Below, piece by piece: positions 32,601-55,813 of a stretch of DNA of 64,000 bases. Origin of the DNA: Thermoplasmata archaeon (GTDB taxonomy: Archaea; Thermoplasmatota; E2; JACPAO01; JAHFTW01); NCBI GenBank assembly GCA_034667725.1, contig JAXDQS010000001.1, positions 173,593 to 237,592 of the forward strand. Reading direction: 5' to 3'. The position numbers and the translations under genes were made by a program. The notes under the pieces were generated by a model. The model was not told where the DNA came from and did not search any database. It saw only the letters and a program-made list of their open reading frames with translations. Numbering within the stretch: position 1 is the first letter of the stretch; each line of letters begins with the position of its first letter.

Positions 32601-34196
32601 CCGGCCACGCGCTCGGTCGTGATCACCCTCAATGCCCCGCTGAGCACCGGCGACATCAACGACGACACCATCGCGGCCCAGCCGAACTCGGTGTTCGAGA
32701 CCTCGCCGACGGTGCAGGCCAAGAAGGTCGCGTCCTACAAGCCGCACGGCATGGACTTCGCCCGCGACGGCGTGCCCCCGGGCAACGTCACCGCCTCGGT
32801 CGTCGCCCCGCTCATCACCGCCAACTCGGTGACGCTGCAGTGGACCGCGCCCGGCAACGACGGCACCTCGACCCTGCCGGCCCCCGCCCGCGACGGCAAG
32901 ACCTACGCCAACGTCACCGGCTACCTCGTCAAGGTGTCCTCCGAGCCCATCACGCCGGAGAACTTCCTGTCGCCGGCCGCCCCGGGCACCATCGCCTTCG
33001 GCTACTCCGACGCCGCCGCCAAGCCGTTCACCGACGGCTCGCGCAACGAGATGGAGCTGGACGACCTGGTCGCCGTGTTCAACCCGGACCTCGGCGCGCT
33101 CGCCGGCCCCGGTGTCATGCAGCAGGTGACGGTGCGCGGCCTGAAGTCCAACACGCTGTACTACTTCGCCGTGGCCGCGTTCGACGACTCCGCCCCCGAG
33201 CCCCAGCTTGGCGGCATCGGCACCGGCACGGTCAGCGCCACCACGGCCGTCGACCCGACGCCGCCCATCGGCACCCCGGTCATCACCTCGAGCACGCACC
33301 GCCCCGACGTCACCCGCCCCAGCAACAGCAAGACCGCGATTTTCGACTGGACGCCGGCGCGCGACGACGAGTCGCTGGTCACCTACCACACCGCGGTCAA
33401 CCACGACCCCGGCTACGTCGCCACCGCGACCGACGAGATGACCACCCGCCTCAGCAAGGAGGTCGTCGTGTCCACCGAGGGCGTCTGGACCTTCCACGTC
33501 GCCGCGTGCAGCGGCGGCGGCTGCGGCGCCACCGGCCACTACAACTTCGGCGTCGGCTACTCGCCGCTCGACAAGCAGGAGATCCGGGTCGCCAACCAGT
33601 ACGTCAACTTCACGGCCGTCCGCGACGACAAGGCGAAGTCCACCACCATCACGTGGGAGCTGCCGCCCGAGGAGTTCCTGCCGTCGCGCGCCAACCTGGA
33701 GGCCGTCGTGGTGTACCGCCTCGACTGCGAGCCCAGCGCCGGCTGCAAGCCCACCGAGGTCCAGCGCGTCAACGGCGACTACACCAACCTCAAGACCGGC
33801 TCGGTCACGGACACCTCCGACAAGGCGACGCTGGCGTCGGCCTACCGCGTCGACATGGTGTTCGCCTCCGGCCAGGAGCAGGCCGAATCCCTCAGCGGCT
33901 TCTCCAAGGTCCGCGACGTCACCCCGGCCGAGTCCAACCTGATGTGGATCCTCATCGCCATCGGCGCCGTCGTGCTCCTGGCCATCGTGGGCTTCGTCGT
34001 GTACGCCATGCGCCGCAAGGGCCCCGGCGCCGCCGAGGCCTGGACCGAGGACCAGCCGGCCGGCACCGACCCGACCAGCGGCCTGCCGGCGCACGACGTC
34101 CGCTGCCCGAGCTGCCAGACGGCGTTCCAGGCGGTGGGCACGCTGCCGTTGCAGATCACCTGCCCCAACTGCGGCGTCGGTGGCCTGCTCCAGTAA
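29658..34196 (+). CDS. Giant type-I membrane surface protein paralog 2 (1512 aa) with identical C-terminal TM + zinc-ribbon architecture
   Basis: Signal peptide MAAGPSSKPHAFRSVAVLTALLVAVLAPLIPQAVA. Repeats carry DTDADGRIDAYVLTFDEPM, DGNRDGYIDGVSLLFNEPVDD and LEGDGFLDGYRVTFSERIDD. FN3-like region (…VTLQWTAPGNDG…). TM WILIAIGAVVLLAIVGFVVYAM, then a tail …TSGLPAHDVRCPSCQTAFQAVGTLPLQITCPNCGVGGLLQ. Alternative TTG start at 29649. Confidence 0.8.
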   Translation: MAAGPSSKPHAFRSVAVLTALLVAVLAPLIPQAVADGTSLSIAVGPHFEIDTSSPTFQGCPGSDATSPQLRARPDDAVVQTRTVRVFNGAAATQTQVTFRYTVAGPGAPPVDRSLTWDEEGSSAAGWTVQAINTGSTAGSFRDLVFNSGSLVPGAADFTIAFRVPTTAVGDAGTATPDLYPINVRTAGGGDFESTPQPTSFCIRVDNKAPKLTDAVTRDTDADGRIDAYVLTFDEPMDTAASAAQFEVKSVTDPSPYQPLGFRASHTFRPGAGTNLGEKTDALLDRQAVLNLAPGYSYDTGEKPDVTYPKGGAVGVIQDQAGNKLGKIVTSDVSERDGAKPVLVSAYGFDGATNIILTFSEKVSGSRADKNLALADLFYEDSLQTKNCIGATDGVSAELGEPKPSPAPAPATTFIIPVLTSRAGAGCTSVRVGDGDSHPSAGDRIKFFDTGNSCVGRDFDPCGAPVYDVASLHAVPARNAPVVVTGPFVKEAEVNIDSFQLTLRFNGPVSSARGEDQPIRLEDLDVVAADGTGQGPGGIVNVLHRPGSDKAIITLDRRTRPTDVDDTPARINIQCNAIKGTGLPSFVPCGDPDNDRSPDVNMVDHTPPAIVAAGTYDGNRDGYIDGVSLLFNEPVDDATFCIQKNVGVQPRTIAHDFGATPDNICNNLDILEIASIPGPYTFDTDKVQNDAQGIIKFPQRAPPTFKPDTSEYLPYSIKTTGDGLFADLAHPEPPTPGVEPWQTANLMLRISKDPVTCPDPNIPCATTLTVADWAPPVVLSAQTVDTKPAVKPSDIGALGSDPVPDLEGDGFLDGYRVTFSERIDDTSFNAAEWQVAGYKVTGMRTYEPHVTKKADQKALSNDTVITIQFEPSKVADTDARPELHYLGSTQARAGLDDLVGNRLLPFGSIGVNEADDAGPVIVGIAAIAGRADVTLLFSEPVDDGSHGALSRRALQYGNVNANKVAESAASGMADQDAVVHKPATRSVVITLNAPLSTGDINDDTIAAQPNSVFETSPTVQAKKVASYKPHGMDFARDGVPPGNVTASVVAPLITANSVTLQWTAPGNDGTSTLPAPARDGKTYANVTGYLVKVSSEPITPENFLSPAAPGTIAFGYSDAAAKPFTDGSRNEMELDDLVAVFNPDLGALAGPGVMQQVTVRGLKSNTLYYFAVAAFDDSAPEPQLGGIGTGTVSATTAVDPTPPIGTPVITSSTHRPDVTRPSNSKTAIFDWTPARDDESLVTYHTAVNHDPGYVATATDEMTTRLSKEVVVSTEGVWTFHVAACSGGGCGATGHYNFGVGYSPLDKQEIRVANQYVNFTAVRDDKAKSTTITWELPPEEFLPSRANLEAVVVYRLDCEPSAGCKPTEVQRVNGDYTNLKTGSVTDTSDKATLASAYRVDMVFASGQEQAESLSGFSKVRDVTPAESNLMWILIAIGAVVLLAIVGFVVYAMRRKGPGAAEAWTEDQPAGTDPTSGLPAHDVRCPSCQTAFQAVGTLPLQITCPNCGVGGLLQ

Positions 34197-34290: not shown

Positions 34291-34500
34291 CGAGCCGGGG
34301 GCCGCCGTGCGCGTGAGCGCACAGGACGAGCGGGCCGGCCCGTGCGAGCGAAGCGAGCGCGCCGGCGCGAGGAGCGGCCCCCAAGCCGGGGGGTCGCAGG
34401 GGCGCAGCCCCCGTTCCCAACAGGCGGGACGAACCGCGCAGCGTGTTCGTCCCGAGCCGAATCTGTTCCTTGGCGTTTTAAATACCCCCAGGATTGGATG
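34291..34500 (+). repeat. Conserved GC-rich intergenic element, copy B, between giant genes 2 and 3
   Basis: Same element as copy A. The hairpin GGGACGAAC-cgcgcagcgt-GTTCGTCCC at 34426-34453 shows compensatory A:T→G:C changes on both stem arms relative to copy A. It is followed by CCGAGCCGAATCTGTTCCTTGGCGTTTTAAATAC. Confidence 0.7.
34476..34485 (+). promoter_or_regulatory. Archaeal TATA box (TTTTAAATAC), promoter of giant gene 3
   Basis: Identical TATA sequence to the giant-2 promoter, ~36 nt upstream of ATG 34521. The conserved flanks are GTTCCTTG[G/T]CGTTTTAAATAC. Confidence 0.5.
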
Positions 34501-34520
34501 CCTTACCCCGCTGGTGGCGT

Positions 34521-37500
34521 ATGGTCAACCGAAAATCCGCGTCCCTCCCCTACGTGCTGGCTTTCCTGATGGTGTTCTCCATCTCGCAAGCCATCGTGCC
34601 CGAGGCGGAGGCAGGCGTCGCCCCCGCTGGCCTCATGAGCGTCTCCGTCGAGCCCAGCTTCACGACCAACGTCATCATGGTCAAGCAGGGCATCAGCGCC
34701 GAGCGCCTGGTGCGGGTGTCGCAGGGCGACCCGCTCAACCCGATGACGACCATCGAGTTCGTCTGGTTCATGCGCGACGACACTTCGACGCCGGCCTGCC
34801 GCGGCCCGCCGCGCGACCTGTGCGCCACGGCCGTCAAGTTCGACTGGATCAAGGAGACCAGCTACGCCATGCGCCCCGGCTGGAAGGTCGAGGCCGCCAC
34901 CTCCACGGCCGCCAAGATCCTCCGCTTCGTCTCCGACGGCACCCAGGAGCTGCGCTCGGGCACGCCGCAGGACTTCAACGTCGCCTTCAGCCAGCGCGGC
35001 GCCGCCCAGGACGACGAGTACCACATCCAGGTCCGCGGCTACTGCGGCGCCGAGTGCCAGCCCGGGGTCGCCTTCGAGACCACCTGCGCCAGCACCCGCG
35101 CCCCCGAGTTCACCTGCATCCACACCAACCCGCCCTTCACCGGCGCCGCCCCGATCCCCGCGGCGGACTGCAACGCGCCCTGCGGCCAGCTGCCGAGCCT
35201 GGTGCTGCGCATCGACAGCGTGCCCCCGGACCCGCCGGCGGTCATCATGCAGGACATCGACCACAACGGCCACATCGACCGCTTCGTGGCGGACTTCCCC
35301 AAGAAGCTCGACGCCAAGTCGTTCGACGCCCGCCTGTTCACCCTCACCGCCCGCGGCCGCCTGTTCGGCTCCAGCCTCACGGACGCCGGCTACACCATCC
35401 AGAACGCCTACTTCGTCAACCCGGACAACCCGGTGCGCGTGGTCTTCCTGGTCAACGAGATGCCGTACTACGACACCGGCGACCAGGTCAACCTGCGCTA
35501 CGCCGGCACCAGCCTGCGCGACGAGGCCGGCAACCCGCTGCGCGGCATCAACGTCCAGGCCACCGACCGCGCCCCGCCGGTCATCGTCGCCGCCTACGGC
35601 CTCCAGGGCTACGACGGCGTCCACGTGACCTTCAGCGAGCCGGTCGTCGGCACCGGCAACGCCCAGGACCCCGCCACCGGCGTCGGCCTGCAGGACCTGC
35701 TGTTCTTCGACGACGGCGGCAGCGCCCCCGACAGCAAGGTCGGCTGCCCCGCCGCGAGCCCGTGCGTCCTGAGCATCGCCGACTCCCGCTTCGGCGCCAT
35801 CACGCACCAGCCCGGCCCCCGCACCGGCCACCAGGCCACCATCAAGACCTCGATCAACCCGGTCACGAGCACGCCCTACACCTTCGGCCCCAACGACGTG
35901 CACCCGCTCAAGGGCGACATGCTCGGCGTCGCCTCCAGCGGCGCCGCCTGCGCCCCCGGCGAGGACCCGCCCTGCGACTCGAAGATCAAGGACGCGGCCG
36001 GCCTCAAGATGTGGCACCCGCTCACGGCCCCCGCGTCCGTCCGGCACATCACCCGCCCCCTCCTGGTGCGCGCCGAGGTCGACATCGGCTCCGACGCCCT
36101 CAAGCTCTGGTTCAACGGCCCCGTGCGCGCCGCCAAGGAGCCCGGCGTCACGACGCCCCAGCCGATCTCGGTGTCCAACATGGACATCGTGACGGCGGCC
36201 GGCACCGGCGTCGGCCCCCAGGGCCTCATCGGCGACTACTTCCGCGCCGTCGACCAGGACTTCATCGTCGTCAAGCTCGACGCCAAGGCCCGCCCCACCG
36301 ACGTCGACGCGACCCCGACCTCGATCCGCCCGCACTGCAAGAAGATCGTCGGCAGCGGCCTCCCCGAGACCAACGACCAGGCGTTCCTGCCGTGCGACAA
36401 CCCGGACCTGTTCTACGAGCAGGAAGCCCGCGTCAAGGGCACCGGCACCTTGGACGCCAAGGGCCGCGACCACGACCTGCCGTCGCCCGGCGCCGCCTTC
36501 GTGGACGACACGCCGCCGCGCATCGTCCAGGTCCGCACCGTGGACACCGACCACAACGGCTGGCTCGACGGCCTCGAGCTCACCATGAGCGAGCCCGTGG
36601 ACGACGTCACGTTCTGCTCGAACGCCAACACCGCCCCCAACTTCTGCCCCGACTCCTGGACCCCGGTCGGCGGCATCTCCCAGGTCGGCCTCGTGATGAT
36701 GCAGAACCTGCGCGCCACCGACGACCGCTCGCAGGAGTGCCTCGGCCTCTACCGCTGGGAGACCGGCCTGGTGGTCAACGACAACGTCGGCATCATCAAG
36801 GCCATCAACGTCGAGCGCAGCCCCACCGGCGAGTACATCGTGACCAGCCGCGACTGCGTCGAGCGCTACTTCAACCAGGACACCGGCATCCGCATGGACA
36901 CCGGCCACCTGCCGACCTTCACCACCACGGCGCGCGGCCTGTTCGCCGACCTGTCGGTGCCGGAGAACCGGATGCCGCAGTACTGCCAGCTGCAGCGCCT
37001 CACCCACTTCCACCACCCGGACGCCGCCACCACCAAGGACTGCGGCCTCCTGGCCAGCACCAAGGCGCAGTACACCGCCCCCGTCTCCGACGGCGCCCCG
37101 CCGGTCGTCATGGCCGCCCGCACCGTGGACACGCCCGCCGTCAACAAGGACGGCATCCCGGACAAGCCCGCCGTGAACCTCTGGGGCGACGGCCGCATCG
37201 ACGGCTACCGCCTCACCATGAGCGAGTCCGTCAAGGACTCCACCTTCGACCGCCGCGACTGGCTGGTGCAGCGCCTCGGCGCCGCGCAGGCCCCGATCCA
37301 CGAGGTCAACGGCTTCCGCAGCTACGACCTCAACGAGACCCTGGGCGCGCTGCGCTCCAACGACCGCGAGCTCACGGTGCTGTTCAACCCGGACACGGTG
37401 CCCGACACGGACGCCCGCCCCGAGCTGACCTACCGCCGCGACCCCGACAGCAAGGGCCTCGCGGACATCGTCGGCAACGTCATGGTGGACTTCGACGAGT

Positions 37501-39284
37501 TCGCCGTGGTCGAGCAGGACGACTCCCGCCCCGTCATCGTGGGCATCGAAGGCTACGTCGGCGAGCGTGTCCTGACCCTCCACTTCAGCGAGCCCGTGGA
37601 CGACGGCGCCCAAGGCAAGCTGGTGTCGGAGGACTTCTTCTACCACAACAACGACGCGACCACGAACCCCGGCGGTGTTGCCGGCAAGGCGGTGTCCAAC
37701 CCGGAGACGGGACAGGCGGTCAACGTCATCCACGTCCCCGACGTCGACTGCACCGGCAACCTCGAAGAGGACGCCGACGGCTGCAACGAGAAGGCCATCA
37801 TCCCGCTCGACCGCGCCCTCACCAACTCCGACCTGACCACCGACCGCATCAACGCGGAGAAGGACACCATCTACGAGAAGGCCCCCACCGTGGTGCCGGT
37901 GCAGCGCAAGGCGGTGCCGAACTTCCAGCAGAAGCTGTCGGTCGGCGCCGACGTGACGCCCCCGGCCAAGGTCACGGACCTGCGCGTGCAGACCGACGCC
38001 GTGCTCGCCAACTCGGTGCTGCTGGCCTGGACCGCGCCCGCGGACGACAGCCTGGCCGGCGGCGCCGTGACGAGCTACGTCTTCAAGGTGTCCACCAGCG
38101 CCATCGACCCCGCCGGCTTCGACGCCTTGGTCAACCCGAACGGCATCACGCCCGAGTTCGAGCCCGCCGCCATGGCGGCGGTCAACCAGACGCAGACCCT
38201 GCGCCTCGTCGGCTTGAACCCGACCACCCAGTACCACTTCGCCATCCGCGCCGTGGACGAGGCGGGCAACGCCGGCGGCGTCTCCAACGCCGTCACGGCG
38301 CTCACCTCGCGCGACGCCACGGCGCCCGTCGGCACCCTCACGGTCTCGAGCACCAGCCACAAGGCCGGCGAGACGGCCCCCAAGGTGCAGGGCATCTTCT
38401 CGTGGAACAAGCTGGAGGACCCCGAGTCCACCGTCGTGTACCGCTACGCCCTGACCGGCAGCCCCGCCTACCAGGTGCTGGCCGCCGACAAGTCCGTGAC
38501 CGGCACCAGCGTCACCGTCGACATCCCCTCCGAAGGCGACTGGACGTTCCACGTCGCGGCCTTCAGCGGCGGCGGCTCGACCCCGACGGCGCACTTCTCG
38601 TTCGGCCGCGGCTCCCCCGTGCTGGCGGCGGACGCCATCGCCGCCGCCAACGACCGCCTCAAGGACAACGTCGAGATCGTCCGCAAGCCCGTCGAGATCC
38701 AGGACGGCGTCGAGGTCGACCTCAACACCATCACCTGGACCCTGCCGCCCGAGTCGGACCTGCCCGGCACCCTCGAGGCCATCGAGATCTGGCGCCTCGA
38801 CGCCGGCATCCCGACCCTGGTCACGACCCAGCCCGGCAGCTACAGCGAGCTCAAGAGCGGCAACTTCACGGACGTCACCCAAGGCGCGGACGAGAACTCG
38901 CTCTACCGCGTCAACATGGTGTTCGCGCAGGACCAGCGCCAAGCCGACCCAAGCGTCTCCGGCCAGTTCAAGGCCCTCCAGAACCAGACGCCCGGCGAAA
39001 TCCCCGCCTGGGTCTACGTCCTGGCAGGCATCGCGCTGGCGTTGATCATCGCGGGCATCATCATCTACTTCGTGCTGCGCGGCCGCCAGAAGGCCGCCGC
39101 GGCCGGAGGGGTGGCGTACTCGTGGGAGTCGGCCGACCCGGAGGCCCTCGGCATCGACGAGGCCACCGGCCTGCCGGTCCACGAGGTCAAGTGCCCGTCG
39201 TGCAACAACCCGTTCCAGGCGGTGGGCGTCCTGCCCCTGCCGGTGACGTGCCCGACGTGCCAGACGACGGGCATGCTGGAGTAA
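34521..39284 (+). CDS. Giant type-I membrane surface protein paralog 3 (1587 aa) with identical C-terminal TM + zinc-ribbon architecture
   Basis: Signal/anchor MVNRKSASLPYVLAFLMVFSISQAIVPEAEA. Repeats carry DIDHNGHIDRFVADFPKKLD, DTDHNGWLDGLELTMSEPVDD and WGDGRIDGYRLTMSESVKD. FN3-like region (…VLLAWTAPADDS…). TM VYVLAGIALALIIAGIIIYFVL, then a tail …ATGLPVHEVKCPSCNNPFQAVGVLPLPVTCPTCQTTGMLE. Confidence 0.8.
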   Translation: MVNRKSASLPYVLAFLMVFSISQAIVPEAEAGVAPAGLMSVSVEPSFTTNVIMVKQGISAERLVRVSQGDPLNPMTTIEFVWFMRDDTSTPACRGPPRDLCATAVKFDWIKETSYAMRPGWKVEAATSTAAKILRFVSDGTQELRSGTPQDFNVAFSQRGAAQDDEYHIQVRGYCGAECQPGVAFETTCASTRAPEFTCIHTNPPFTGAAPIPAADCNAPCGQLPSLVLRIDSVPPDPPAVIMQDIDHNGHIDRFVADFPKKLDAKSFDARLFTLTARGRLFGSSLTDAGYTIQNAYFVNPDNPVRVVFLVNEMPYYDTGDQVNLRYAGTSLRDEAGNPLRGINVQATDRAPPVIVAAYGLQGYDGVHVTFSEPVVGTGNAQDPATGVGLQDLLFFDDGGSAPDSKVGCPAASPCVLSIADSRFGAITHQPGPRTGHQATIKTSINPVTSTPYTFGPNDVHPLKGDMLGVASSGAACAPGEDPPCDSKIKDAAGLKMWHPLTAPASVRHITRPLLVRAEVDIGSDALKLWFNGPVRAAKEPGVTTPQPISVSNMDIVTAAGTGVGPQGLIGDYFRAVDQDFIVVKLDAKARPTDVDATPTSIRPHCKKIVGSGLPETNDQAFLPCDNPDLFYEQEARVKGTGTLDAKGRDHDLPSPGAAFVDDTPPRIVQVRTVDTDHNGWLDGLELTMSEPVDDVTFCSNANTAPNFCPDSWTPVGGISQVGLVMMQNLRATDDRSQECLGLYRWETGLVVNDNVGIIKAINVERSPTGEYIVTSRDCVERYFNQDTGIRMDTGHLPTFTTTARGLFADLSVPENRMPQYCQLQRLTHFHHPDAATTKDCGLLASTKAQYTAPVSDGAPPVVMAARTVDTPAVNKDGIPDKPAVNLWGDGRIDGYRLTMSESVKDSTFDRRDWLVQRLGAAQAPIHEVNGFRSYDLNETLGALRSNDRELTVLFNPDTVPDTDARPELTYRRDPDSKGLADIVGNVMVDFDEFAVVEQDDSRPVIVGIEGYVGERVLTLHFSEPVDDGAQGKLVSEDFFYHNNDATTNPGGVAGKAVSNPETGQAVNVIHVPDVDCTGNLEEDADGCNEKAIIPLDRALTNSDLTTDRINAEKDTIYEKAPTVVPVQRKAVPNFQQKLSVGADVTPPAKVTDLRVQTDAVLANSVLLAWTAPADDSLAGGAVTSYVFKVSTSAIDPAGFDALVNPNGITPEFEPAAMAAVNQTQTLRLVGLNPTTQYHFAIRAVDEAGNAGGVSNAVTALTSRDATAPVGTLTVSSTSHKAGETAPKVQGIFSWNKLEDPESTVVYRYALTGSPAYQVLAADKSVTGTSVTVDIPSEGDWTFHVAAFSGGGSTPTAHFSFGRGSPVLAADAIAAANDRLKDNVEIVRKPVEIQDGVEVDLNTITWTLPPESDLPGTLEAIEIWRLDAGIPTLVTTQPGSYSELKSGNFTDVTQGADENSLYRVNMVFAQDQRQADPSVSGQFKALQNQTPGEIPAWVYVLAGIALALIIAGIIIYFVLRGRQKAAAAGGVAYSWESADPEALGIDEATGLPVHEVKCPSCNNPFQAVGVLPLPVTCPTCQTTGMLE

Positions 39285-39289
39285 CGCGG

Positions 39290-39450
39290 ACAACCGCCTG
39301 GGGCGTTTGTCCGCCCTCCAGCGGGGGCTTTGCCCCCGCACCCCCACGGCAAGGGGGCCGCGCCCTCGGCCCGTGCGCTCGCTGGCGCTCGCGCAGGCGG
39401 GCGCCCTCGGTCCTGCGCGCTCACGCGCGCGGCGGCCCCCGGCCCGGCGT
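39290..39450 (-). repeat. Inverted (reverse-complement) copy C of the GC-rich element, immediately 3' of giant gene 3
   Basis: GGCGGGCGCCCTCGGTCCTGCGCGCTCACGCGCGCGGCGGCCCCCGGC is the reverse complement of the 5' part of copies A/B. The 5' portion (GGGGCGTTTGTCCGCC…GGGGGCTTTGCCCCCGC…) is the reverse complement of the GGCGAAGCCCCC…GGCGGAACGAAC region. It lacks the TATA segment. Confidence 0.6.
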
Positions 39451-39483
39451 GTCGGCTAAATGCGTGAAACCTGTGGAGTCCCT

Positions 39484-40383
39484 GTGCGCCTGCTGTTCCT
39501 GACGCGGGAGGTGCGCCTCTACTCGGTGCGCCGCTTCCAGCAGGCGTGCCGGACGCAGGGGCACGCCTTCGAGCACCTGGACGTGCTCGGCTGCAACCTG
39601 GTGCTGCACCCCAGCGCCCCGCAGCTCTGGTCGGGCGGGAACCCGGTGCAGCGCCGCGAGGTGGACGCCGTGGTGCCCCGCATCGGCACCTCCGTGACCG
39701 ACGAGGGCTGCGCCGTGGTCGCGCAGTTCGAGGCGATGGGCGTCCCGGTCGTCAACGGCAGCGAGGCCATCCAGCGCGCCCGCGACAAGCTGCGCTCCCT
39801 CCAGCTCCTGGCCGGCGCCCACATCCCGATCCCGCGCACGGCGGTCATCCGGGTCACCGACGACCTCGACGAGGCCATCGACCAGGTGGGCGGGATTCCG
39901 TGCGTCCTCAAGCTCCTCAAGGGCACGCAAGGCATCGGGGTCATGCTGGCCGAGTCGCGGGAGGGATTGGAGGCGATGCTGCAGGCGTTCTGGAGCCTCG
40001 GCCACACCGTCCTCTTGCAGGAGTTCATCCATGAGTCGAAGGGCAAGGACGTGCGCGCGTTCGTTGTCGGCGACCGGGTGGTGGGCGCGATGCGGCGCGA
40101 GGCCCAGGTCGGCGAGTTCCGCTCCAACATCCACCGCGGCGGCGTCGGGCGGCCGCTCGTGCTGACCCCCGAGGACGAGGCCAAGGTGCTGCGCGCATCC
40201 CGCCTGCTCGGCCTCGACGTCGCGGGCGTCGACTACCTGGAGTCGGACGACGGGCCGAAGGTCATCGAGGTCAACGCCAGCCCCGGCTTCCAAGGCCTGG
40301 AGCAGGCGACCGGGCTCGACATCGCGGGCGAGATCGTGCGCCACGCCGCCGAGCGCGGGCGGGCCGGCGCGAGGGGGACGTGA
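39484..40383 (+). CDS. rimK: RimK-like ATP-grasp alpha-L-glutamate ligase
   Basis: ATP-grasp fold matching the RimK family across its length (…CVLKLLKGTQGIGV…, …FRSNIHRGG…, …IEVNASPGFQGLE…). GTG start at 39484. The stop overlaps the next start (TGATG). Confidence 0.8.
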   Translation: MRLLFLTREVRLYSVRRFQQACRTQGHAFEHLDVLGCNLVLHPSAPQLWSGGNPVQRREVDAVVPRIGTSVTDEGCAVVAQFEAMGVPVVNGSEAIQRARDKLRSLQLLAGAHIPIPRTAVIRVTDDLDEAIDQVGGIPCVLKLLKGTQGIGVMLAESREGLEAMLQAFWSLGHTVLLQEFIHESKGKDVRAFVVGDRVVGAMRREAQVGEFRSNIHRGGVGRPLVLTPEDEAKVLRASRLLGLDVAGVDYLESDDGPKVIEVNASPGFQGLEQATGLDIAGEIVRHAAERGRAGARGT

Positions 40384-41417
40384 TGGCCGCGGCCCTCAAG
40401 GACGGCCGGTTCGCGGGCCGCGTGGTGGCGCCGGGCGACGTCGCGCAGGTGGACCTCAAGGTGAGCGAGTCGGTCGCGCACCAGCCGATGCGGATCCCGG
40501 TGACGGTGGCGCGCGGCAAGAAGGACGGCCCGGTGCTCTACGTCACGAGCGCCATCCACGGCGACGAGATCAACGGCGTCGCCATCGTCCGCCGCCTCCT
40601 GGACGGCATCGACGGCCTGCTGGTGGCCGGCACCCTGGTCGCGGTCCCCATCGTCAACCGCTTCGGCTTCGAGTCCGGCGAGCGCTACCTGCCCGACCGG
40701 CGCGACCTCAACCGCCACTTCCCCGGCGACCCCAAGGGCTCCATGGCGGCCCGCCTTGCCGACCAGGTGTTCCGCAAGATCGTCCGCGGCTGCGACTTCG
40801 GCGTCGACCTGCACACCGCCGCCGACGGCAACACCAACCTCTGCCACATCCGCGGCGACGCCGACCGCCCCGAGCTCAAGGCGCTCATGAAGGCGTTCGG
40901 CATCCCCATCATGGTGCACGGCGACGGGCCCCGCGGATCATTGCGCCGCGCCGCCACCGAGGCCGGCGTCCCGAGCCTGCTGTTCGAGGCCGGCGAGCCC
41001 GGCCGGTTCCAGCGCCGCGTCGTCGAGGTCGGCCACGCCGGCCTCGTGAGCCTGCTGCGCCACCTCGGCATGGCCGACGGCAAGCCCACCAAGCCGCCGC
41101 TGCAGATCCTGGTGCGCGAGGCCGAGTGGGTCCGCAGCGACCACGGCGGCATCCTCGACCTCGACGTCGAGCCCGGCGACATCGTCCGCAAGGGCGACCC
41201 TCTCGGCACCATCCACGACCCGCTCGGCCGCCACGTCGACGCCGTGGACGCGCCCATCTCCGGCGTCGTGCTGGGCACCACCACCTCGCCGCTGGTGTTC
41301 CCCGGCCTCGCCATGGTGCACCTCGGCCAGCTCGAGAAGACCTTCGACCGCGCCCGCGCCTACGCCGACGCCGGCGGCGACCTCGGCCACGTCCACTTCC
41401 CCGGAGGCCGCCCGTGA
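40383..41417 (+). CDS. Succinylglutamate desuccinylase/aspartoacylase (AstE/AspA, M14-like Zn hydrolase) family protein, RimK-associated
   Basis: Zn-ligand contexts SAIHGDEINGV (HxxE) and …DLHTA… are typical of the AstE/AspA family. This family is commonly found adjacent to rimK. The stop overlaps the next GTG start. Confidence 0.75.
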   Translation: MAAALKDGRFAGRVVAPGDVAQVDLKVSESVAHQPMRIPVTVARGKKDGPVLYVTSAIHGDEINGVAIVRRLLDGIDGLLVAGTLVAVPIVNRFGFESGERYLPDRRDLNRHFPGDPKGSMAARLADQVFRKIVRGCDFGVDLHTAADGNTNLCHIRGDADRPELKALMKAFGIPIMVHGDGPRGSLRRAATEAGVPSLLFEAGEPGRFQRRVVEVGHAGLVSLLRHLGMADGKPTKPPLQILVREAEWVRSDHGGILDLDVEPGDIVRKGDPLGTIHDPLGRHVDAVDAPISGVVLGTTTSPLVFPGLAMVHLGQLEKTFDRARAYADAGGDLGHVHFPGGRP

Positions 41418-42748
41418 GGCCGCGCAGCGCCGCCACCCTCCTGGCCCGCGGCTGGCTGCGCGACGCGCGCCGCTGGGCCTGGAGCGCCTCGCTGGTGCTC
41501 GCCGGCACCCTCGGCCTGATGATCGGTGCCGCCGGCATCCTCGAAGGCACCGAGGCCGAGACGCTGGAGCGCGTCGCGGACTTCTACACGGGCGACCTGC
41601 GCATCACCCGCGACCGGCCCGGCGCGCTCCCGCCCGCGTGGTTCGACCTCAACAAGACCACCGGCCCCGACGGCGGCGGCGGGCTCGCGAAGGCGGGCCG
41701 CATCGTCTCCTACCGCGTCGAGGCGCAGTACGTCATGAGCCGGCGCGGCTTCCTGGAGGCCGCCCTGCTGGAGCGCGACCAGTTCATCGTCGAGGCGCCC
41801 GGCTCCGCCGGCAACGCCACCGAGGCCATCGCGCTCGGCTCGCTCGTCGGCCTCGACGCCGGCGACCCGGGCCGCGCGTTGCTGGAGCGCCACCTGGTCG
41901 CGGGCCGGATGCCCCGCGAGTCCAGCAACGACACGCTGGAGGTCGTCATGTCGCTGCGCCGGCTGTCGCAGTTCTTGACCCCTGGCGAGTCGGCCGCCGC
42001 CGCCAACATCGCCCCGATGACGGTCGCGGGCGCCCTCAACATCGAGGCCACCAGCGCCCAAGTCGACCTCGGCAACCGCTACCGCCTGCCGATTCGGCGT
42101 TCCGTCGAGGTCGTGGGGTTGTACGACACCAGCGTCGATGTGCTCGACGGCTACACCATGATCGCCGCCGCCCCGGACGTGCGCGCCATGGTCGCCCGCC
42201 CGCCGCACGAGCGCAGCGCCAACGCCATCGCGGTCTGGGGCGAGACGGCGGGCCTCGCAACCCTCGGCAAGGAGCGCAACTGGGCCGTGCAAGGGCCCGA
42301 AGGCTTCGCCCAGAACTACGTCGGCGAGACCATGGCCATCCTGTCCGCCGTCGTGGTGTTCGTCGGCGCCGTGCTGTTCCTCATTCCCACCTTCCTCGTC
42401 AGCCACGGCCTTGCCCGCCAACTCGCCGCCCAGCAACGCGAGCTCGCCGTCTGCACCGCCATCGGCGTCCCCGCCCGCGTCCTCCGGAACGCCTTGGGCC
42501 TGGAGGTGCTGCGCATCGGCCTCGGCGGCCTGCTGATCGCCGCGGCCCTCGTGGCCCTCGGCGTCTGGCTCCTGCCCGGCGCCTTGGCGAACGTCCACGG
42601 CGCCCCGCTGCCGCTCGGCTTCGCGTTGAGCCTGACCGCCGTCGGCTCCGCCCTCCTGGTGACGCTGCTGTCGATGGCGATCGGCCTGTTCATCGGCGTG
42701 CGCAGCCGGCGCCGGCTCGGGTTGGCGGCGCAGCTGCGGGCGGTTTGA
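41414..42748 (+). CDS. FtsX/MacB-type ABC-transporter permease-like membrane protein (no adjacent ATPase)
   Basis: One N-terminal TM ([23 protein letters not shown]), a ~270-aa extracytoplasmic domain, then three C-terminal TMs with FtsX-like topology (…[21 protein letters not shown]…, …[15 protein letters not shown]…, …[23 protein letters not shown]…). The GTG start at 41414 overlaps the upstream stop. Confidence 0.65.
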
Positions 42749-42791: not shown

Positions 42792-43934
42792 ATGCAAATG
42801 ATGGCCACCCCTGAGCACCAGCTCGTCCGCCAGACGATGCGCGAGTTCGCCGAGCGCGAGGTCGCCCCCATCGCGGCCCGCATGGACCAGGAGGACTGGT
42901 GGCCGGACACGCTGGTCCCGCGCATGGCCGAGCTGGGGCTTTTGGGCATGACCGTGAAGCAGGAGGACGGCGGCGCCGGGCTCGACACGGTCGCCTACAA
43001 CATGGCCATCGAGGAGATCGCCCGCGTCTCGGGCTCGCTTGCCCTCAGCCTTGCGGCCCACAACGGCCTGGGCATCAGCCACATCTACACCCAAGGCAAC
43101 GCGGCGCAACGGGAAACCTACGTCCGCCCGATGGCGCAGGGCAAGGTCATCGGCGCCTGGTGCCTCACCGAGCCGGGCGCGGGCTCGGACGCGGCGGGGC
43201 TCGCGACGACGGCGGTGCGCGACGGCGATGGCTGGCGGCTCGATGGCCAGAAGCAGTTCATCACCAACGGCCACATCGCCGGCGTCTTCACCATCATGGC
43301 CAAGACCGACCCGGCGAAGGGTCCGGCGGGCATCACGGCGTTCGTGGCCAAGGCCGGCGCCAAAGGCCTCCACCTCGGCAAGAAGGAGGACAAGCTCGGC
43401 ATGCGCGGCAGCATCACGAGCCAACTCTACTTCGAGGACCTCCACGTCCCGGACGAGGGCGTCGTCGGCAAGGTCGGCGAGGGCTTCCTCGGCACCATGA
43501 AGACCTTGGACGCCGGCCGCATCGCCATCGGCAGCCTCGCCCTCGGCCTCGCCCAAGGCGCCTTCGACGCCAGCCTCGCCTACGCCCAAGAGCGCAAGCA
43601 GTTCGGCAAGCCCATCGCGCACAACCAGGCCATCCAGTGGAAGCTCGCCGACATGGCGACCCAGATCGACGCCGCCCGCCTGCTCTTGCACCGCGCCGCG
43701 ACCCTCAAGGACGAGGGCAAGCCGTTCACCCGCGAAGCCAGCATGGGCAAGCTCTACGCCAGCGAGGTCGCCATGTGGGCCACCACGCAGGCCATCCAGG
43801 TCCACGGCGGCAACGGCTACACCCGCGACTACCCCGTCGAGCGCATGTTCCGCGACGCCAAGCTGTGCGAGATCGGCGAGGGCTCGTCCGAGGTTCAGCG
43901 GATGGTCATCGCGAAGTCGCTCGGTTTGCGTTAG
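42792..43934 (+). CDS. Acyl-CoA dehydrogenase (short/medium-chain type)
   Basis: 380 aa with full-length ACAD architecture. Conserved motifs [10 protein letters not shown], …FITNG… and the catalytic-base context …[24 protein letters not shown]…. Confidence 0.9.
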
Positions 43935-47206: not shown

Positions 47207-47290
47207 CGCTGGCGGGCAATCGGCGCCAGCGTCCGCCTTGGGCCAGGATTAGCCGAAAGCCTCACCTGTATTCCCTGGCCTCGTGGCCCG

Positions 47291-50200
47291 ATGCCGGACC
47301 TCAACCCGACGAACCGGAGGCCGCAGGACCTGAGGAGCGCCACGGGCAGCCCGGCCGCCCCGTCGGTCCCCTCCACTTCTGCCATCCCTTCCCCTGCGAC
47401 GCCCACGGTGCCTTCCATGCCAGACTCCCCCACGACCCCGTCCATCCCCATCGCCCCGTCGAGCCCGCTGACGCCCCCGTCGGCCCCCTCGGGCGGCACT
47501 CCAAGCCCACCGTCCCCCTCCGGGCTGCTGCTGGCCGCGCTGCAGAGCGCCACCGTCACGCCCTCCCGCGTCGCCTTGAAGCCCGGCCAGCCGTTCGCGC
47601 CGCAGCTCCAGCTCCCCGGCGCCGTCCTGGCCACGACCCCCGCCGGCCCGACGGCGCTGGACGTGGGCGCCATGGCCAAGGTTCGGTGGCAGGCCTACCC
47701 GGCCAAGGCCGACGGCACGCCGGACTACGCCAACCCCATGCCGCAGCGCCAAGCCACGCTGGTCGGCCCCGTCCACAGCCGGACGCCGACGTTCCTGTTC
47801 CGGCCGCGCATCCTGGGGGACGCCGACCCTGCCACGGCGACCCCGGCGTTCGTGGTGGCCCACCTGGAGGCCATGGCGGACGGCCTCGCGGTCCGGCACG
47901 ACATCCCCATCCCCGTGGACCTGGAGCCCATGGCCACCCGCGAGGTCTACGGCCAGCTGGGCCGCCTGTTCAAGGTCCAGGTCTCCGCCCCCGCCGTGCC
48001 GGCCGGCGGCATCCTGCGCGCCTCCATCCTGCCCCGCGGCGCCGAGGAGACGGAGTTCGTCGTCAAGACCGCCTCGCTCCAGGGCAAGCCCATCCTGGAG
48101 GTCACGGGCAGCGTGGGCCTGGACGGCGCCATGACCGCCCTCAACGCCATCGCGGGCAGGTCCGCCGCCCCCGGCGCCTTCGCGCTGCACGACGTGGCCA
48201 CTTCGATCGCCATCCTGAACGACCCTGCCGAGCGCGTGGCCGCGACCCTGGCGATGCTGGGCGAGCCCATCGACCGCCTGGCCGGCGTCATGGCGCTTCT
48301 GAGCGAGCCCACCGACCGGGTCGCCGCCACGCTGGCGATGTTGAGCGAGCCCGTCGACCGCGTCGCCTCCGCCCTGGCCCTGGCCTCCCTGCCGGTGGAC
48401 AAGATCGCTGACGTGGCCGCCGTCCTGCTGATCCCCCTGGACCGCATCGCGGGCATCATCGGCCTCTTGAGCGAGCCGTTCGAGGAGGTCGCCCGGGCGC
48501 TCCACTTGCTTGGCTACCCCGCCGAGAAGGTGGCGCAGGCCCTCGCCATGCTGGTGGAGCCGGTGGCCGGGGCCGTCAGCGTCGTGAGCGCCTTCATCGG
48601 CAAGGGCTCCGGCTTCGACGTGGACGCCGGCGACCTGACCCGCCAGGCCACCCCCGTCCTGGGAGGCGCCAGCCGTCTGGGCGACACGGCCGGCACCGTC
48701 GGCGCCCTGCTGGACACCAGCGACCTGCGCCGCCGCATCGCCTCCATCCTGGCGTCCACCGACGTCAAGGGGCAGGTCCGCGCCATGATGCAGGCCCCCG
48801 GGTTCCAGGAGCGCACGCGGGCCATCCTCGACGACCGCGGCCTGCCGGAACGGCTCGCGGCCGTGCTCGACAACAAGGACTCCATGCGCCGGCTACGGCC
48901 CCTCCAGCAGACGGGCCAGGGCAGCGACCGCGGGGCTGCCGTCCTGGCCGGGAAGGGCCGGCTGGAGCGCATGCAGGCCCAGGCCGCCCGCGACGGCGTG
49001 GCCCGCGGCGTGCAGCTCCCCATCAACGTCCAGGTCAAGAACGCCGACTTCACCAAGCACCTCGTCCGCCGCGAGGACGAGGACCCGGTGTACAAGCTGA
49101 CGCCCAGGGCCCGCCAGCTCCCCGAGGTGCCCGGCCTGGTGGACGAGATGCAGGTCGCCGACCGGCTGCCCGACGGGGTCGCGGCCTTCGAGGCGGGGCC
49201 GCTGCGGCTGCCGTTCTCCATCAAGGGCGCCACCTGGCAGCTCTTCCGGTCCCCCGGCGAGCGGGACGAACTGCCCGCCTCCCGCTACCGCTTCGCCGAG
49301 GGCACCGCGGGGCGGAACCTGGTCCGGTCGCTCCAGCTCGGCGTCCCCGAGGCTGACACGGTCCTGCGCCTCGTCGTCAAGCTCCAGTTCGGCTTCGACC
49401 CGAACCAGGTGGCCGCCGAGGGGCTGCCGCCGCTGCCGGACTCTTGGGTTGCGCTGCCCGACGTCCCGCTGCGTTGGCTAGGCGCCGACGTGCTGGACCT
49501 CGTGGCCCAGCAAATCACCCTGTCCGCCCCGGCCACGGTGCCGCCCGGCGGCCCCGTCCCCGCCAGCCTTGCCTGCCCCCTGTTCGCGCAGGCCGACCCG
49601 GCCGCCACCGAGGTCGGCGGCACCGCCACCCTCGGGGAGGGCGTGCCGGTGCCCTTCAAGATTACCAACGTCCAGTGGCGCCTCTTGGACACGACGGGGC
49701 AGGAACGGCAGCGGGACGCCGGCCGCACCGGCTTCGCCGCCCTGGCCGCCCGCCTGGACGCCGGGCTCCCCAGCACGGACGAGACCTGCGTGCTGGAGGC
49801 CTCGTTCCGCCTCCAGGCCGGCGACGGCGGCCTCGTGCCGACGACGCAAGGGGACGCGCCCTTGACCCTGCGCACCGCCCTGAGGATCGAGGGGGTGGAC
49901 GTCCTCGGGCTGCTGCTGTCCCAGATCTCCCTGGACGCGCCGGCCACGGTGCCCGCCGGCGCCACGGCCACCCTAGGCGTCCTGTCCCCCTTGCTGCCCG
50001 ACGGGCTCCCCGCCGGGGGCGCCACCGTGCGCCTGGCCATCGCGGGCGGCCCCGGCCTTCCCGTCCAGTTGGCGGACCCCGTGTGGGAGGTCAAGGACGA
50101 GGCGGGCCAAGCGGCCAACCTGCCTGTGCTGCCGCCCCAGGACACGACGCGCACCGTCGCGCTGTCGTTCGAGGCCCGGCCCACCGGCCTTCCCCCCACC

Positions 50201-52636
50201 CGTGTCCGGCTGGGGCCGGTGCGGATTCGCTTCCTGGGGCTCGACCTGGAGGCCGCCTTGCGCAGGCAGCTTGCCATCGGCTGCCCCGCCCGGCTGGCGC
50301 CTCTCGCGCCCTTGGCCGTGCGCCTGGATGGCGCCGTGCTGGAGGACAAGGCCATCCCGTTGGGCGTCGGCGTGCCCGCCTTGCCCATCGCGCTCGCCGG
50401 CGTCCAATGGAGCCTCAAGCGCAGGGACGGCTCGGCGGCCCCGGGCCAAGCCCTGCCGTCGCAGGCGCCGCAGGAGCAGTCCTACGGCATGCCGCTTCTG
50501 GCCGAGGACACGGCGCTTGCGCTGGAGGCCCAGGTCCGCCTCCAGGCCGGCGGCTTCGGCCCCATCCCCGTCCGCGAGGTGTCCCTGACCCTCCAGGCCG
50601 CGGTCACGGTGGCCGGCCTGGACGTCGGCAAGGCGTTGGGCGATGCCCTGCACATCCAGGCGCCTGCGTCTGTGGCTCCCGGCAAGCCGGTCGTCGCCCG
50701 GCTGGAGTCGCACCTCTTCCAGGCCACGGACGGCGCCACCGGCCTGCTCCCCGTGCCCGACGGCCCCGGCCTGCCCTTCGAGGTGCGGCGCGTGGACTGG
50801 ACCCTGGTCCCATCCAGCGGGCAGGCCCTCGCCGCCACGGGCGCGGGTCCCACGGTCCGGCAGGCCACGCTCGGCTCCCTGCTGCCCGAGGCCTCCACGG
50901 AGGCCATCGTCGGCGCCACCGTGATTGCCGCGGTCGCGGGCCAGGAGTTGGCGGCCCTCCGGCTGCCCCCTGTTCCCATCCAGTTGGGCGGCCTCGACCT
51001 GGTGCAGGCCGCCTTGGCGCAGCAGCTCCGCGTCGAGGTGCCGGCGACATCGCCCAAGATCGGGGACCACATCCAGGCGACCTTGACGGGGGCTGGCCTT
51101 GACTCCACCCCGGACGCGCTGGCCGGGACGCTCGGCGGCGACCTGCCGCTGCCGTTCAAGGTGTCCGCGGTCGCCTGGTCCTTGGAGCAGGCCGGCGGCG
51201 GCGCCGTCCCGGTGGCGACGGACCCCGAGCAGATGCGGACGCACACCTTCGACGCGCTGCTGCCGGACACCACGGTCCCCTGGTGGGTCCGGGCCAGCCT
51301 CACCGTGCAGGTGGACGGGCTGCGCGGCACGCCCGTCGAACGCCAGCTCGAGCTGCGGTCGCGGCCCCTGCGCATCCCTGGTGTGGACCTGGTGCGCGCC
51401 GCCGTGGTCGGCAAGCTCCGCCCGACCATCAAGGGAAACGAAGAGCCCGGCGGCTGGGTGGAGGTCGGCCTCGACGCCGACTTCCCGCTTCAGCCCAACG
51501 GCCCGAATCTGCGGGGAGTGAGGCTTGGAGTGGGGCGGCCGATGGTCGCCGGCCATCCCGTCGAGATTCTCGTGAGGCTGCAGGCCGGCGGTTCCGGGCT
51601 GGCTGGCGAACGCCCGTGCCTGGCCCGGTCCAAGGACAACCTAACATGGGAGCTCCTGTTCGCGCCGGAGGTGGCCATCCGGCCGGCCGGGCCCGCCACC
51701 CGCCCCGTGAAGGTACAGTTTGGTGTCTACATGCGCCACCCCCAGACGGGCGACGTTGTGACCTTGCACGTGGAACAGTCCGAGTCCATCGTGTTGGTTC
51801 CCCCGATCCAGTTGCCGGCGCTGGCGGCCGCCGTGGAGGAAGGCAAGATCGCCTGCATCGCGGTCCCCGACTACTACCGCTTTTGGCACGTGGACGGCTG
51901 GGAAAGCCTGGCGGACACCCTGAAGGCGGCCCGCAAGCAGGTCGAGGGGGTCCTTGAGGCCCTGCGGGCGAAAGGGGCGTCCACTTCCGACGTCGAGCCC
52001 TACTCGGTGACGGCGGAGGCCCTTCGCCTCATCCTGGACGCCAGCGGGGGCGCGGAGGCGTTCCGCTTCATGCGGAGAACCGGCGACATCTATTCCCACC
52101 CGGCCGACGAGGACATCAAGGCCGCCCAGAGTTGGCTGCTCGCCGTCCCGCAGTTCGGGGAAAGGATGGCCCTCGTGGCATTCACGCGCAGCACGTTCGG
52201 CATGACCACCCATGCCCAGATGGGCGGGGACATGGCAAGGGAGGTGGCGATGGCCCGGGGAAGTCCGTTCGACCTCTTGGAGCGCCTTGGCGAGTTGATG
52301 AAATCCCGCTACTTCTGGGACCGCTTCACGCGCCTGCCCAGCGCGCCGCCGGTCCTCATCCGCTACGACCTCCAGAACCCGGATGGCGTCTGGGAGGACG
52401 CACGGGCCCAGTTCGAGGCGGTGTACGCCGAGCCCCAGCCGCCCGTGCCGGCCGTCCGCCTGCTGCCGCCCCGCGGCTACCGCGCCGAATGGGACTTCAG
52501 GATGGGCGGCAAGAAGCGGGAGGGAAGCGCCGACCTGGCATCCGCTGGCAACCCGGACTTCCGGATGACCAAGGGCGGGTGGGACCGGCGTTTCATCGAC
52601 CAGTTGAACCTGTCGCCCCCCGAACCGGAGGCCTGA
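47291..52636 (+). CDS. Large (1781 aa) hypothetical repeat protein, no signal peptide or TM
   Basis: Pro/Ser-rich N-terminus. A run of 11-residue repeats follows (LAMLGEPIDRLAGV / MALLSEPTDRVAAT / LAMLSEPVDRVASA …; 33-nt period, ~48240-48560). Then six or more ~130-aa repeats share …LDAPATVPAG…LG…LPDG…PF[KE]V..V.W.L…. The ~230-aa C-terminus is non-repetitive. No family assignment is possible by eye. Confidence 0.55.
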   Translation: MPDLNPTNRRPQDLRSATGSPAAPSVPSTSAIPSPATPTVPSMPDSPTTPSIPIAPSSPLTPPSAPSGGTPSPPSPSGLLLAALQSATVTPSRVALKPGQPFAPQLQLPGAVLATTPAGPTALDVGAMAKVRWQAYPAKADGTPDYANPMPQRQATLVGPVHSRTPTFLFRPRILGDADPATATPAFVVAHLEAMADGLAVRHDIPIPVDLEPMATREVYGQLGRLFKVQVSAPAVPAGGILRASILPRGAEETEFVVKTASLQGKPILEVTGSVGLDGAMTALNAIAGRSAAPGAFALHDVATSIAILNDPAERVAATLAMLGEPIDRLAGVMALLSEPTDRVAATLAMLSEPVDRVASALALASLPVDKIADVAAVLLIPLDRIAGIIGLLSEPFEEVARALHLLGYPAEKVAQALAMLVEPVAGAVSVVSAFIGKGSGFDVDAGDLTRQATPVLGGASRLGDTAGTVGALLDTSDLRRRIASILASTDVKGQVRAMMQAPGFQERTRAILDDRGLPERLAAVLDNKDSMRRLRPLQQTGQGSDRGAAVLAGKGRLERMQAQAARDGVARGVQLPINVQVKNADFTKHLVRREDEDPVYKLTPRARQLPEVPGLVDEMQVADRLPDGVAAFEAGPLRLPFSIKGATWQLFRSPGERDELPASRYRFAEGTAGRNLVRSLQLGVPEADTVLRLVVKLQFGFDPNQVAAEGLPPLPDSWVALPDVPLRWLGADVLDLVAQQITLSAPATVPPGGPVPASLACPLFAQADPAATEVGGTATLGEGVPVPFKITNVQWRLLDTTGQERQRDAGRTGFAALAARLDAGLPSTDETCVLEASFRLQAGDGGLVPTTQGDAPLTLRTALRIEGVDVLGLLLSQISLDAPATVPAGATATLGVLSPLLPDGLPAGGATVRLAIAGGPGLPVQLADPVWEVKDEAGQAANLPVLPPQDTTRTVALSFEARPTGLPPTRVRLGPVRIRFLGLDLEAALRRQLAIGCPARLAPLAPLAVRLDGAVLEDKAIPLGVGVPALPIALAGVQWSLKRRDGSAAPGQALPSQAPQEQSYGMPLLAEDTALALEAQVRLQAGGFGPIPVREVSLTLQAAVTVAGLDVGKALGDALHIQAPASVAPGKPVVARLESHLFQATDGATGLLPVPDGPGLPFEVRRVDWTLVPSSGQALAATGAGPTVRQATLGSLLPEASTEAIVGATVIAAVAGQELAALRLPPVPIQLGGLDLVQAALAQQLRVEVPATSPKIGDHIQATLTGAGLDSTPDALAGTLGGDLPLPFKVSAVAWSLEQAGGGAVPVATDPEQMRTHTFDALLPDTTVPWWVRASLTVQVDGLRGTPVERQLELRSRPLRIPGVDLVRAAVVGKLRPTIKGNEEPGGWVEVGLDADFPLQPNGPNLRGVRLGVGRPMVAGHPVEILVRLQAGGSGLAGERPCLARSKDNLTWELLFAPEVAIRPAGPATRPVKVQFGVYMRHPQTGDVVTLHVEQSESIVLVPPIQLPALAAAVEEGKIACIAVPDYYRFWHVDGWESLADTLKAARKQVEGVLEALRAKGASTSDVEPYSVTAEALRLILDASGGAEAFRFMRRTGDIYSHPADEDIKAAQSWLLAVPQFGERMALVAFTRSTFGMTTHAQMGGDMAREVAMARGSPFDLLERLGELMKSRYFWDRFTRLPSAPPVLIRYDLQNPDGVWEDARAQFEAVYAEPQPPVPAVRLLPPRGYRAEWDFRMGGKKREGSADLASAGNPDFRMTKGGWDRRFIDQLNLSPPEPEA
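48240..48560 (+). repeat. 33-nt (11-codon) tandem periodic repeat inside the 1781-aa gene
   Basis: About nine or ten consecutive 11-aa units of consensus [LA]-[AL]-[ML]-L-[SG]-E-P-[VIT]-D-R-[VL]-A. Confidence 0.5.
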
Positions 52637-55724: not shown

Positions 55725-55744
55725 ATTCCAACACGACTGGCTTC

Positions 55745-55755
55745 CCCTATATCGT
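55745..55755 (-). promoter_or_regulatory. Putative TATA box for the DUF4062-TPR gene (leaderless-type spacing)
   Basis: On the minus strand, CGATATAGGGG is centred ~27 nt upstream of ATG 55724 in a GC-rich background. Confidence 0.35.
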
Positions 55756-55813
55756 CGGATTGGCTAATGATGGGCCAAATGCCGTTTTCGATACGCACTC
55801 TCGCGAGCGCGCT

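Follow-up and report, generated by a model that had tools for sequence, protein, structure and literature searches.

The window analysed here is a 64-kb stretch of DNA (72% GC; all positions are window coordinates) from contig JAXDQS010000001.1 of a Thermoplasmata archaeon, and it encodes the archaeal markers TFIIB, Trm1, a THEP1-type nucleoside triphosphatase and HVO_0163-type helix-turn-helix proteins. Its subject of interest is a triad of plus-strand genes at 39484-42748, predicted to encode a RimK ligase, an AstE/AspA-like hydrolase and an ATP-binding cassette (ABC) permease subunit, whose third-codon-position GC (GC3) values of 0.97, 0.98 and 0.96, respectively, are of the coding type. 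The genes of the triad and the signals around them are the following:

39286-39339, no strand assigned: two GC-rich hairpins, with 13-nt arms at 39286-39314 and 8-nt arms at 39321-39339
39446-39451, plus strand: TAAAT, candidate archaeal TATA-like box, about 33 nt 5' of the rimK GTG
39484-40383, plus strand: rimK, RimK alpha-L-glutamate ligase of the bacterial type, ATP-grasp, 299 aa, GTG start
40383-41417, plus strand: astE-like gene, AstE/AspA-family (COG3608-type) zinc amidohydrolase, 344 aa
41403-41407, plus strand: GGAGG, Shine-Dalgarno-like, 7 nt 5' of the permease GTG and within the 3' end of the astE-like gene
41414-42748, plus strand: predicted type VII ABC permease (MacB/FtsX superfamily, LolC/E-like), orphan, 444 aa

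The three genes overlap at both boundaries. At TGATG (40381-40385), the rimK stop codon TGA (40381-40383) shares one nucleotide with the ATG of the astE-like gene (40383-40385), for which GTG 40380 is an alternative start, and at GTGA (41414-41417) the permease start codon GTG overlaps the astE-like stop codon TGA (41415-41417) by 4 nt. A preliminary description of this DNA had reported both overlaps, which are present exactly as given, and had taken them to imply an operon with translational coupling, an interpretation strengthened by the recurrence of the overlaps in related genomes. As read from its sequence, the triad is a translationally coupled three-gene operon, and the three products are expected to be co-expressed since the rimK-astE pair lies immediately 5' of the permease gene and is coupled to it. 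The hairpin pair directly follows the stop codon of the last of the upstream giant surface-protein genes and is likely a transcript end or a stability element between that gene and the triad, while TAAAT is a possible TATA-like box. Because the hairpins follow the giant gene and TAAAT precedes rimK, the triad is probably a transcription unit of its own.

The rimK product matches the Pfam domains RimK (PF08443, 194 bits) and Rimk_N (pre-ATP-grasp; PF18030, 91 bits), clears the TIGR00768 cutoff (257 vs. 143 bits) and narrowly misses that of the S6--L-glutamate ligase equivalog PRK10446 (297 vs. 331 bits), with weaker NCBIfam matches to MptN (161 bits) and CofF (84 bits). Among solved structures in the PDB, it matches the RimK of Pseudomonas (7QYR, 7e-86) and that of E. 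coli (4IWX, 3e-81) and is far from LysX/ArgX (~1e-24). These scores point to a close relative of the solved bacterial RimKs, far nearer to true RimK than to MptN, CofF or LysX. To our knowledge, ribosomal protein bS6 is specific to bacteria, so that the acceptor of this ligase cannot be bS6, which archaea lack; bS6 is also the only protein substrate to which we know RimK to have been tied by experiment. A close RimK orthologue conserved in archaea without bS6 must, then, have another acceptor.

The astE-like product matches the Pfam domain AstE_AspA_cat (PF24827) at 133.6 bits against a cutoff of 25, and none of the NCBIfam equivalogs DoeB (88 vs. 403 bits), ASPA (26 vs. 180) and AstE (16 vs. 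306) is reached. Its best PDB matches are 3CDX (1e-26) and the DoeB structure 6TWL (3e-20). Residues H59, E62 and H144, the DRRDLNR motif (D108-L109-N110-R111) and EAGE (E202/E205) are invariant across 29 AstE-like homologues and, mapped onto the residues of ASPA, H59/E62/H144 (H-x-x-E ... H) are presumably the zinc ligands and DLNR the carboxylate-binding motif. Those AstE/AspA-family enzymes whose function is known use small N-acyl amino acids as substrates. Additionally, four AstE-like proteins of Thermoplasmatota (P0061, P0079, P0086, and P0090) carry N- or C-terminal polybasic tails of 100-190 residues rich in K, A, P and R, which the window protein does not have; the composition of these tails suggests that they bind a polyanion such as poly-glutamate (poly-Glu), RNA or the ribosome.

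The sequence of the third gene product alone gave a weak classification, since the window permease scores below the Pfam FtsX cutoff (16.4 vs. 25.5 bits) and the best match of a permease-family profile among PDB sequences was YtrF at an E value of only 0.0018; for this reason structure prediction was needed. Orthologues in related loci score 38.8 bits (L016, above the cutoff) and 24.5 bits (L017), and those of L016 and L010 carry FtsX on record. An AlphaFold model built with 20 homologues (pLDDT 81, pTM 0.74) has an N-terminal amphipathic helix, a first transmembrane (TM) helix, an extracytoplasmic domain of about 250 aa and TM helices 2-4. With this model, Foldseek matched LolC/LolE over the full length (E down to 3e-15, TM-score 0.53-0.62), and its top 47 matches (E <= 0.001) were LolC/E, YtrF, MacB, HrtB, YbbP, BceB, and Spr0695. 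A short helix with the motif RELAV..AIG, invariant or nearly so even in loci that lack the rimK-astE pair, corresponds to the canonical coupling helix of FtsX domains. The predicted structure thus presents gene 3 as a genuine LolC/E-like type VII ABC permease subunit. The three family assignments of the preliminary description were borne out by the Pfam and NCBIfam domains and by the AlphaFold and Foldseek results, and structure prediction, which it had proposed for the FtsX-like periplasmic domain, returned the LolC/LolE/MacB fold over the full length of the protein. The permease family is small, with 20 members found by a word-indexed search of 5.8 billion proteins and 40 cluster representatives at E <= 1e-30 in an exhaustive hidden Markov model (HMM) search of 1.84 billion representatives; below that level the HMM meets only generic FtsX C-terminal domains. 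By these searches, the permease is assigned to a small, lineage-restricted subfamily.

A tblastn search with a nucleotide-binding domain (NBD) covered 15 distinct Thermoplasmatota loci and found no ABC ATPase closer than ~10 kb to the permease; the single exception, in L014, is an unrelated NBD that lies 4.4 kb from the permease and is followed by an unscanned 282-aa open reading frame (ORF). The window holds a single ABC ATPase domain (4527-6878, minus strand), which is ~34 kb away and fused to its own ABC_membrane domain, of type-IV style. The permease is therefore an orphan, without a linked ATPase gene, and the absence of a cognate ATPase nearby, noted in the preliminary description for this single locus, extends across the loci compared.

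Within these 15 loci, the association of the hydrolase with the permease was complete: all ten loci with an astE-like gene (10/10) carry the permease 3' of it on the same strand. The two genes directly adjoin in eight of them (the window, L005, L006, L008, L013, L016, L017, and L023), and in the remaining two, which belong to one clade, a gene on the opposite strand parts them. The junctions are equally recurrent, with an overlap of 1-14 nt between rimK and the astE-like gene in 8/8 loci and of 1-4 nt between the astE-like gene and the permease in 6/8; where the two adjoin, the latter overlap was seen in every locus with called genes. The neighbourhood search that the preliminary description had called for therefore found the triad conserved as a unit, and the combination that it regarded as contrary to its proposal, a cognate ATPase gene just beyond the window together with absence of the triad elsewhere, did not occur, because the triad is conserved in eight further distinct loci (six with the genes directly adjacent, two split). 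Two further features enter this comparison:

42792-43934 (window), plus strand: acyl-CoA dehydrogenase (ACAD) gene, syntenic 3' neighbour, a control for plain synteny
5877-7286 (L010) and 9007-10452 (L103), minus strand: opposite-strand gene splitting astE-like gene and permease, 469-481 aa, no Pfam match

From the side of the permease the association is looser. In five loci the available flank of the permease contains no rimK-astE (L001/L011, L003/L012, L014, L015, and the distant L009), and in L001/L011 and L003/L012 the order is giants-permease-ACAD, with neither rimK nor astE. At least three permease-bearing lineages thus lack the pair at the triad position, through loss or relocation. Neighbour-joining analysis of the permeases places every pair-less locus beside a triad locus as its sister, which suggests that the triad is ancestral and that the pair was lost or relocated at least three times. 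Compared with the window proteins, RimK is 74-77% identical (full-length matches), AstE 64-72%, the permease 31-50%, the giants 30-40%, and ACAD 77-84%. The ACAD gene also adjoins the permease in L001, L003, L010, L014, L016, and L103, and since this adjacency (7 loci) is about as frequent as that of the pair and the permease, part of the conservation of the triad is plain synteny among moderately related genomes. The triad also stays intact where its 3' flank has changed: it is followed by sucC in two loci (L006 and L008) and by a trypsin-like gene in another (L005).

Outside this lineage, the pair occurs without the permease. A metagenome scan with an AstE profile yielded 79 distant loci (38-50% identity); flanks of 1.3 kb or more on both sides were available for 39 of them. 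In 28 of the 39, rimK lies no further than 1.5 kb from the astE-like gene, and 26 of the 28 retain the rimK-astE order. Because so many distant loci keep the pair, RimK with a COG3608-type hydrolase is a widespread two-gene module. The permease-family HMM matched none of the 79 distant loci (0/79) and matched Thermoplasmatota loci only, and on this distribution the permease is best described as a Thermoplasmatota-specific addition to the module. Some of the closest bacterial AstE-like homologues (~50% identity) have no rimK at all. In the bacterial-type loci the only recurrent third partner was a RimB-like retropepsin-type protease (PF05618), encoded directly after the astE-like gene in 4/44 loci (L050, at 5049-5513, L059, L069, and L089), besides rimK itself in inverted order; AstE-like protein and RimB thus coexist in one operon and are therefore probably not simply redundant. 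The 350-450 nt between rimK and the astE-like gene of bacterial-type loci were considered as the site of a further small gene, which was rejected since no consistent ORF was found, and this gap is probably an N-terminal extension of AstE. The preliminary description had called ligase and M14-like deacylase a known write/erase pairing, but as such the pairing is not known from experiment, since the only eraser demonstrated experimentally for RimK is RimB, of family PF05618 (PMC7343187), and what we observed for the AstE-like family is genomic linkage alone (28/39). No PF05618 (RimB-like) or EAL (RimA) domain was found among the scanned genes of the window.

Four giant surface-protein genes (18421-39284) lie 5' of the triad, the last of which is described as follows:

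34494-39284, plus strand: last giant, 1596 aa, fn3 domains, C-terminal TM helix, cytoplasmic CPxC...CPxC zinc-ribbon tail, ending in -GMLE

In almost every related locus an orthologue of this last giant lies 5' of rimK or of the permease, which makes the giant a syntenic 5' neighbour of the triad whose membership in the operon is conjectural. Giants 2-4 share the C-terminal TM helix, a linker and the CPxC...CPxC zinc ribbon, and giant 1 has no such tail. The conserved tail (TM helix, linker, and zinc ribbon), with the motif H[DE]V[RK]CPSC..PFQAVG.LPL..TCP.CG..G.L[EDQKR], lies at 29100-29388, 34010-34196, and 39080-39284 of the window and was also seen at the giant C-termini of L001, L003, L005, L006, L010, L016, and L017; in L014 a free-standing gene for a 189-aa zinc ribbon (DUF7836) lies between the giants and the permease. 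The Glu-rich cytoplasmic tails that the preliminary description, as a weak speculation, ascribed to three proteins upstream were confirmed for giant 2 (12% Glu, against 3.8% in the whole protein) and not for giant 4 (7%), giant 3 (3%) or the tail-less giant 1. In 7/8 loci the C-terminus of the last giant is -L-E or -L-D; among these are L001 and L003, which have no rimK there. Covariation of this C-terminal residue with the presence of rimK was considered and rejected, the tails of L001 and L003 being equally conserved. Altogether, the giant-tail data neither support nor exclude glutamylation of the tails.

On the 3' side of the triad lie the acyl-CoA dehydrogenase gene, a PKD/TSP3 surface protein gene and a thiolase gene. 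On the 5' side of the giants, 10406-15207 encodes a lamin-tail-domain protein and a transglutaminase-core protein; a transglutaminase-core gene also lies 5' of the giant in L016 (positions 1-850 of that locus), and this neighbour may be part of a conserved surface-protein block. An ORF of ~1800 aa at 47207-52636 (plus strand) has a coding-type GC3 of 0.93 and no Pfam match at E <= 0.001. At 53784-56000, around a DUF4062-TPR gene (53784-55763, minus strand), GC drops to 0.65 from ~0.72 elsewhere, and this segment may be acquired DNA.

Our preferred reading, to which we assign a probability of roughly 0.55, is that the triad is a lineage-specific operon co-expressing two separable functions, namely a ligase/hydrolase couple of known kind and an orphan type VII ABC permease. 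In this scheme, as suggested by the chemistry of the families, RimK would attach Glu in alpha linkage to a carboxylate acceptor, and the AstE-like enzyme would cleave an X-CO-NH-Glu bond in which Glu bears a free carboxylate, so that the two would form a build-and-trim couple. The permease gene would ancestrally be a member of the giant surface-protein gene block, and its product would act extracytoplasmically, plausibly on the neighbouring giants. The permease most likely keeps an ABC ATPase partner encoded elsewhere in the genome, given that loci without the pair conserve its coupling-helix motif as well. The separability of pair and permease is directly observed in the pair-less permease loci, in the split arrangement of L010 and L103, and in the wide occurrence of the pair without the permease. 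Direct biochemical cooperation of the pair with the permease is possible.

Several points weigh against two separable functions. Seen from the astE side, the link to the permease is perfect (10/10) and survives the change of flank among ACAD, sucC and the trypsin-like gene, and the conserved stop/start overlaps argue for stoichiometric co-expression; together these observations suggest more than chance synteny. Besides, the search of permease loci yielded no ATPase partner in any of them, which leaves the step that places the ATPase elsewhere as an inferred one. The 15 loci are a sample from one phylum, consisting of contigs from metagenome-assembled genomes (MAGs) or metagenomes, and the neighbour-joining tree is crude. 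In pair-less genomes, loss of rimK-astE and its relocation are indistinguishable, as the data are contigs and not whole MAGs.

The preliminary description suggested an integrated membrane-associated glutamylation system. In such a system RimK would extend, and the AstE-like enzyme trim, alpha-Glu chains on the zinc-ribbon tails of the giants or on another membrane-proximal acceptor, with the permease as platform or effector. The giants-rimK-astE-permease block appears ancestral and is widely kept, rimK starts 35-200 nt after a giant in the window, L005, L010, and L103, and the free acidic residue that ends the last giant is a C-terminus of the kind RimK extends on bS6. The conserved astE/permease overlaps agree with such a system, and the polybasic tails of some AstE homologues would suit a polyanion such as poly-Glu. 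Even so, we regard it as doubtful, because the terminal E/D and the whole tail are just as conserved where the pair is locally absent (L001 and L003), only one of the three giant tails is Glu-rich, and two hairpins part the giant from rimK; moreover, the pair is widespread without giants or permease, the permease persists without the pair, and physical interaction among the products is speculation. The more specific proposal of a single machine, in which a glutamylation cycle on the -L-E/D tails is physically coupled to the ATPase-less permease and controls how the giants are handled or released outside the cell, or which conformation they adopt there, seems to us quite improbable. If true, it would amount to a "tail code" for archaeal surface proteins, and a true RimK would for the first time have a protein substrate outside the ribosome.

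The pair could instead serve the metabolism of small molecules or of a free polymer, with RimK making oligo- or poly-alpha-glutamate or an N-acyl-Glu dipeptide, the AstE-like enzyme hydrolysing the product, and the permease, with an unlinked ATPase, handling the product or a related envelope component. The substrates of characterised AstE/AspA enzymes are indeed small N-acyl amino acids, and DoeB-type deacetylases are the best characterised matches of the hydrolase; archaea have no bS6, and their known RimK-family enzymes glutamylate cofactors (MptN and CofF). E. coli RimK reportedly makes poly-alpha-Glu in vitro. We nevertheless consider this explanation unlikely, given a ligase nearer to true RimK (297 bits; PDB 7e-86) than to MptN (161), CofF (84) or LysX, a permease of a class whose members are not classical exporters of cytoplasmic solutes, and a RimB-like protease that sometimes joins the bacterial pair and points to a protein-tail system. 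A last alternative lets RimK, or a RimK/AstE complex, dock on the coupling helices of the permease in place of an ABC NBD and so drive or gate it. The lack of an ABC ATPase within ~10 kb and the translational coupling of rimK to the permease through astE would fit, but the coupling-helix motif is equally conserved in loci without rimK, the RimK found here is unremarkable, closely related to soluble bacterial RimK and without additional domains, and we know of no precedent for RimK as a surrogate ABC ATPase, which makes this idea extremely improbable.

The components themselves are of known kinds, and it is their arrangement that appears new in the literature searched: a true archaeal RimK whose constant partner is an AstE-like hydrolase in place of RimB, with a translationally coupled orphan LolC/E-like permease, all set within a block of genes for giant surface proteins. 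The literature search found no paper on the pairing of RimK with AstE/COG3608 or on RimK in Thermoplasmatota. Cooperation of the three proteins would connect glutamylation in the cytoplasm with the surface of the archaeal cell. Without such cooperation, the locus still provides a clean case in which to test what the widespread RimK-COG3608 module does, and it offers a rare archaeal subfamily of type VII ABC permeases with an unlinked ATPase.

Compared with the bacterial RimK/bS6 system, the window has a closely homologous ligase (E values of 7e-86 to 3e-81) with the same two-domain architecture, and in both the ligase is paired in an operon with a hydrolase, which in the window could reverse the reaction as RimB does in bacteria (PMC7343187). 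The differences are an archaeal host without bS6, a score that narrowly misses the PRK10446 cutoff, and the predicted co-transcription of the ligase gene with a membrane permease gene. The hydrolase of the window is of the AstE/AspA (M14-like) family and not RimB (PF05618) as in the RimABK system of Pseudomonas, whose RimA is not present here. Ligation of alpha-Glu onto small molecules does occur in archaea through MptN and CofF, which cap cofactors, yet the window ligase is much nearer to true RimK. A looser analogy may be drawn with the eukaryotic TTLL glutamylases and the CCP (M14) deglutamylases, which likewise combine an ATP-grasp ligase with a zinc hydrolase of the carboxypeptidase-like fold class in a write/erase logic, whereas the window pair has no specific sequence relationship to TTLL or CCP. 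In mammals, RIMKLA and RIMKLB, which make N-acetyl-aspartyl-glutamate (NAAG), and aspartoacylase, in the metabolism of NAAG and N-acetyl-aspartate (NAA), also bring together a RimK-family ligase and an AspA-family hydrolase around acidic N-acyl amino acids and dipeptides.

The permease compares best with the LolCDE, MacB, FtsEX, YtrEF, and HrtBA systems, all of the type VII ABC / MacB-FtsX superfamily; MacB, LolCDE and FtsEX are not classical transmembrane exporters of cytoplasmic solutes. It differs from them in its low identity (12-17%), its archaeal host, its small subfamily and its Pfam FtsX score below the cutoff, as well as in having no adjacent ATPase gene in any of its loci and in its position among giant surface-protein genes. 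What it has in common with them is the predicted fold, in which a large extracytoplasmic domain joins the first two of four TM helices, together with the RE..AIG motif of the coupling helix.

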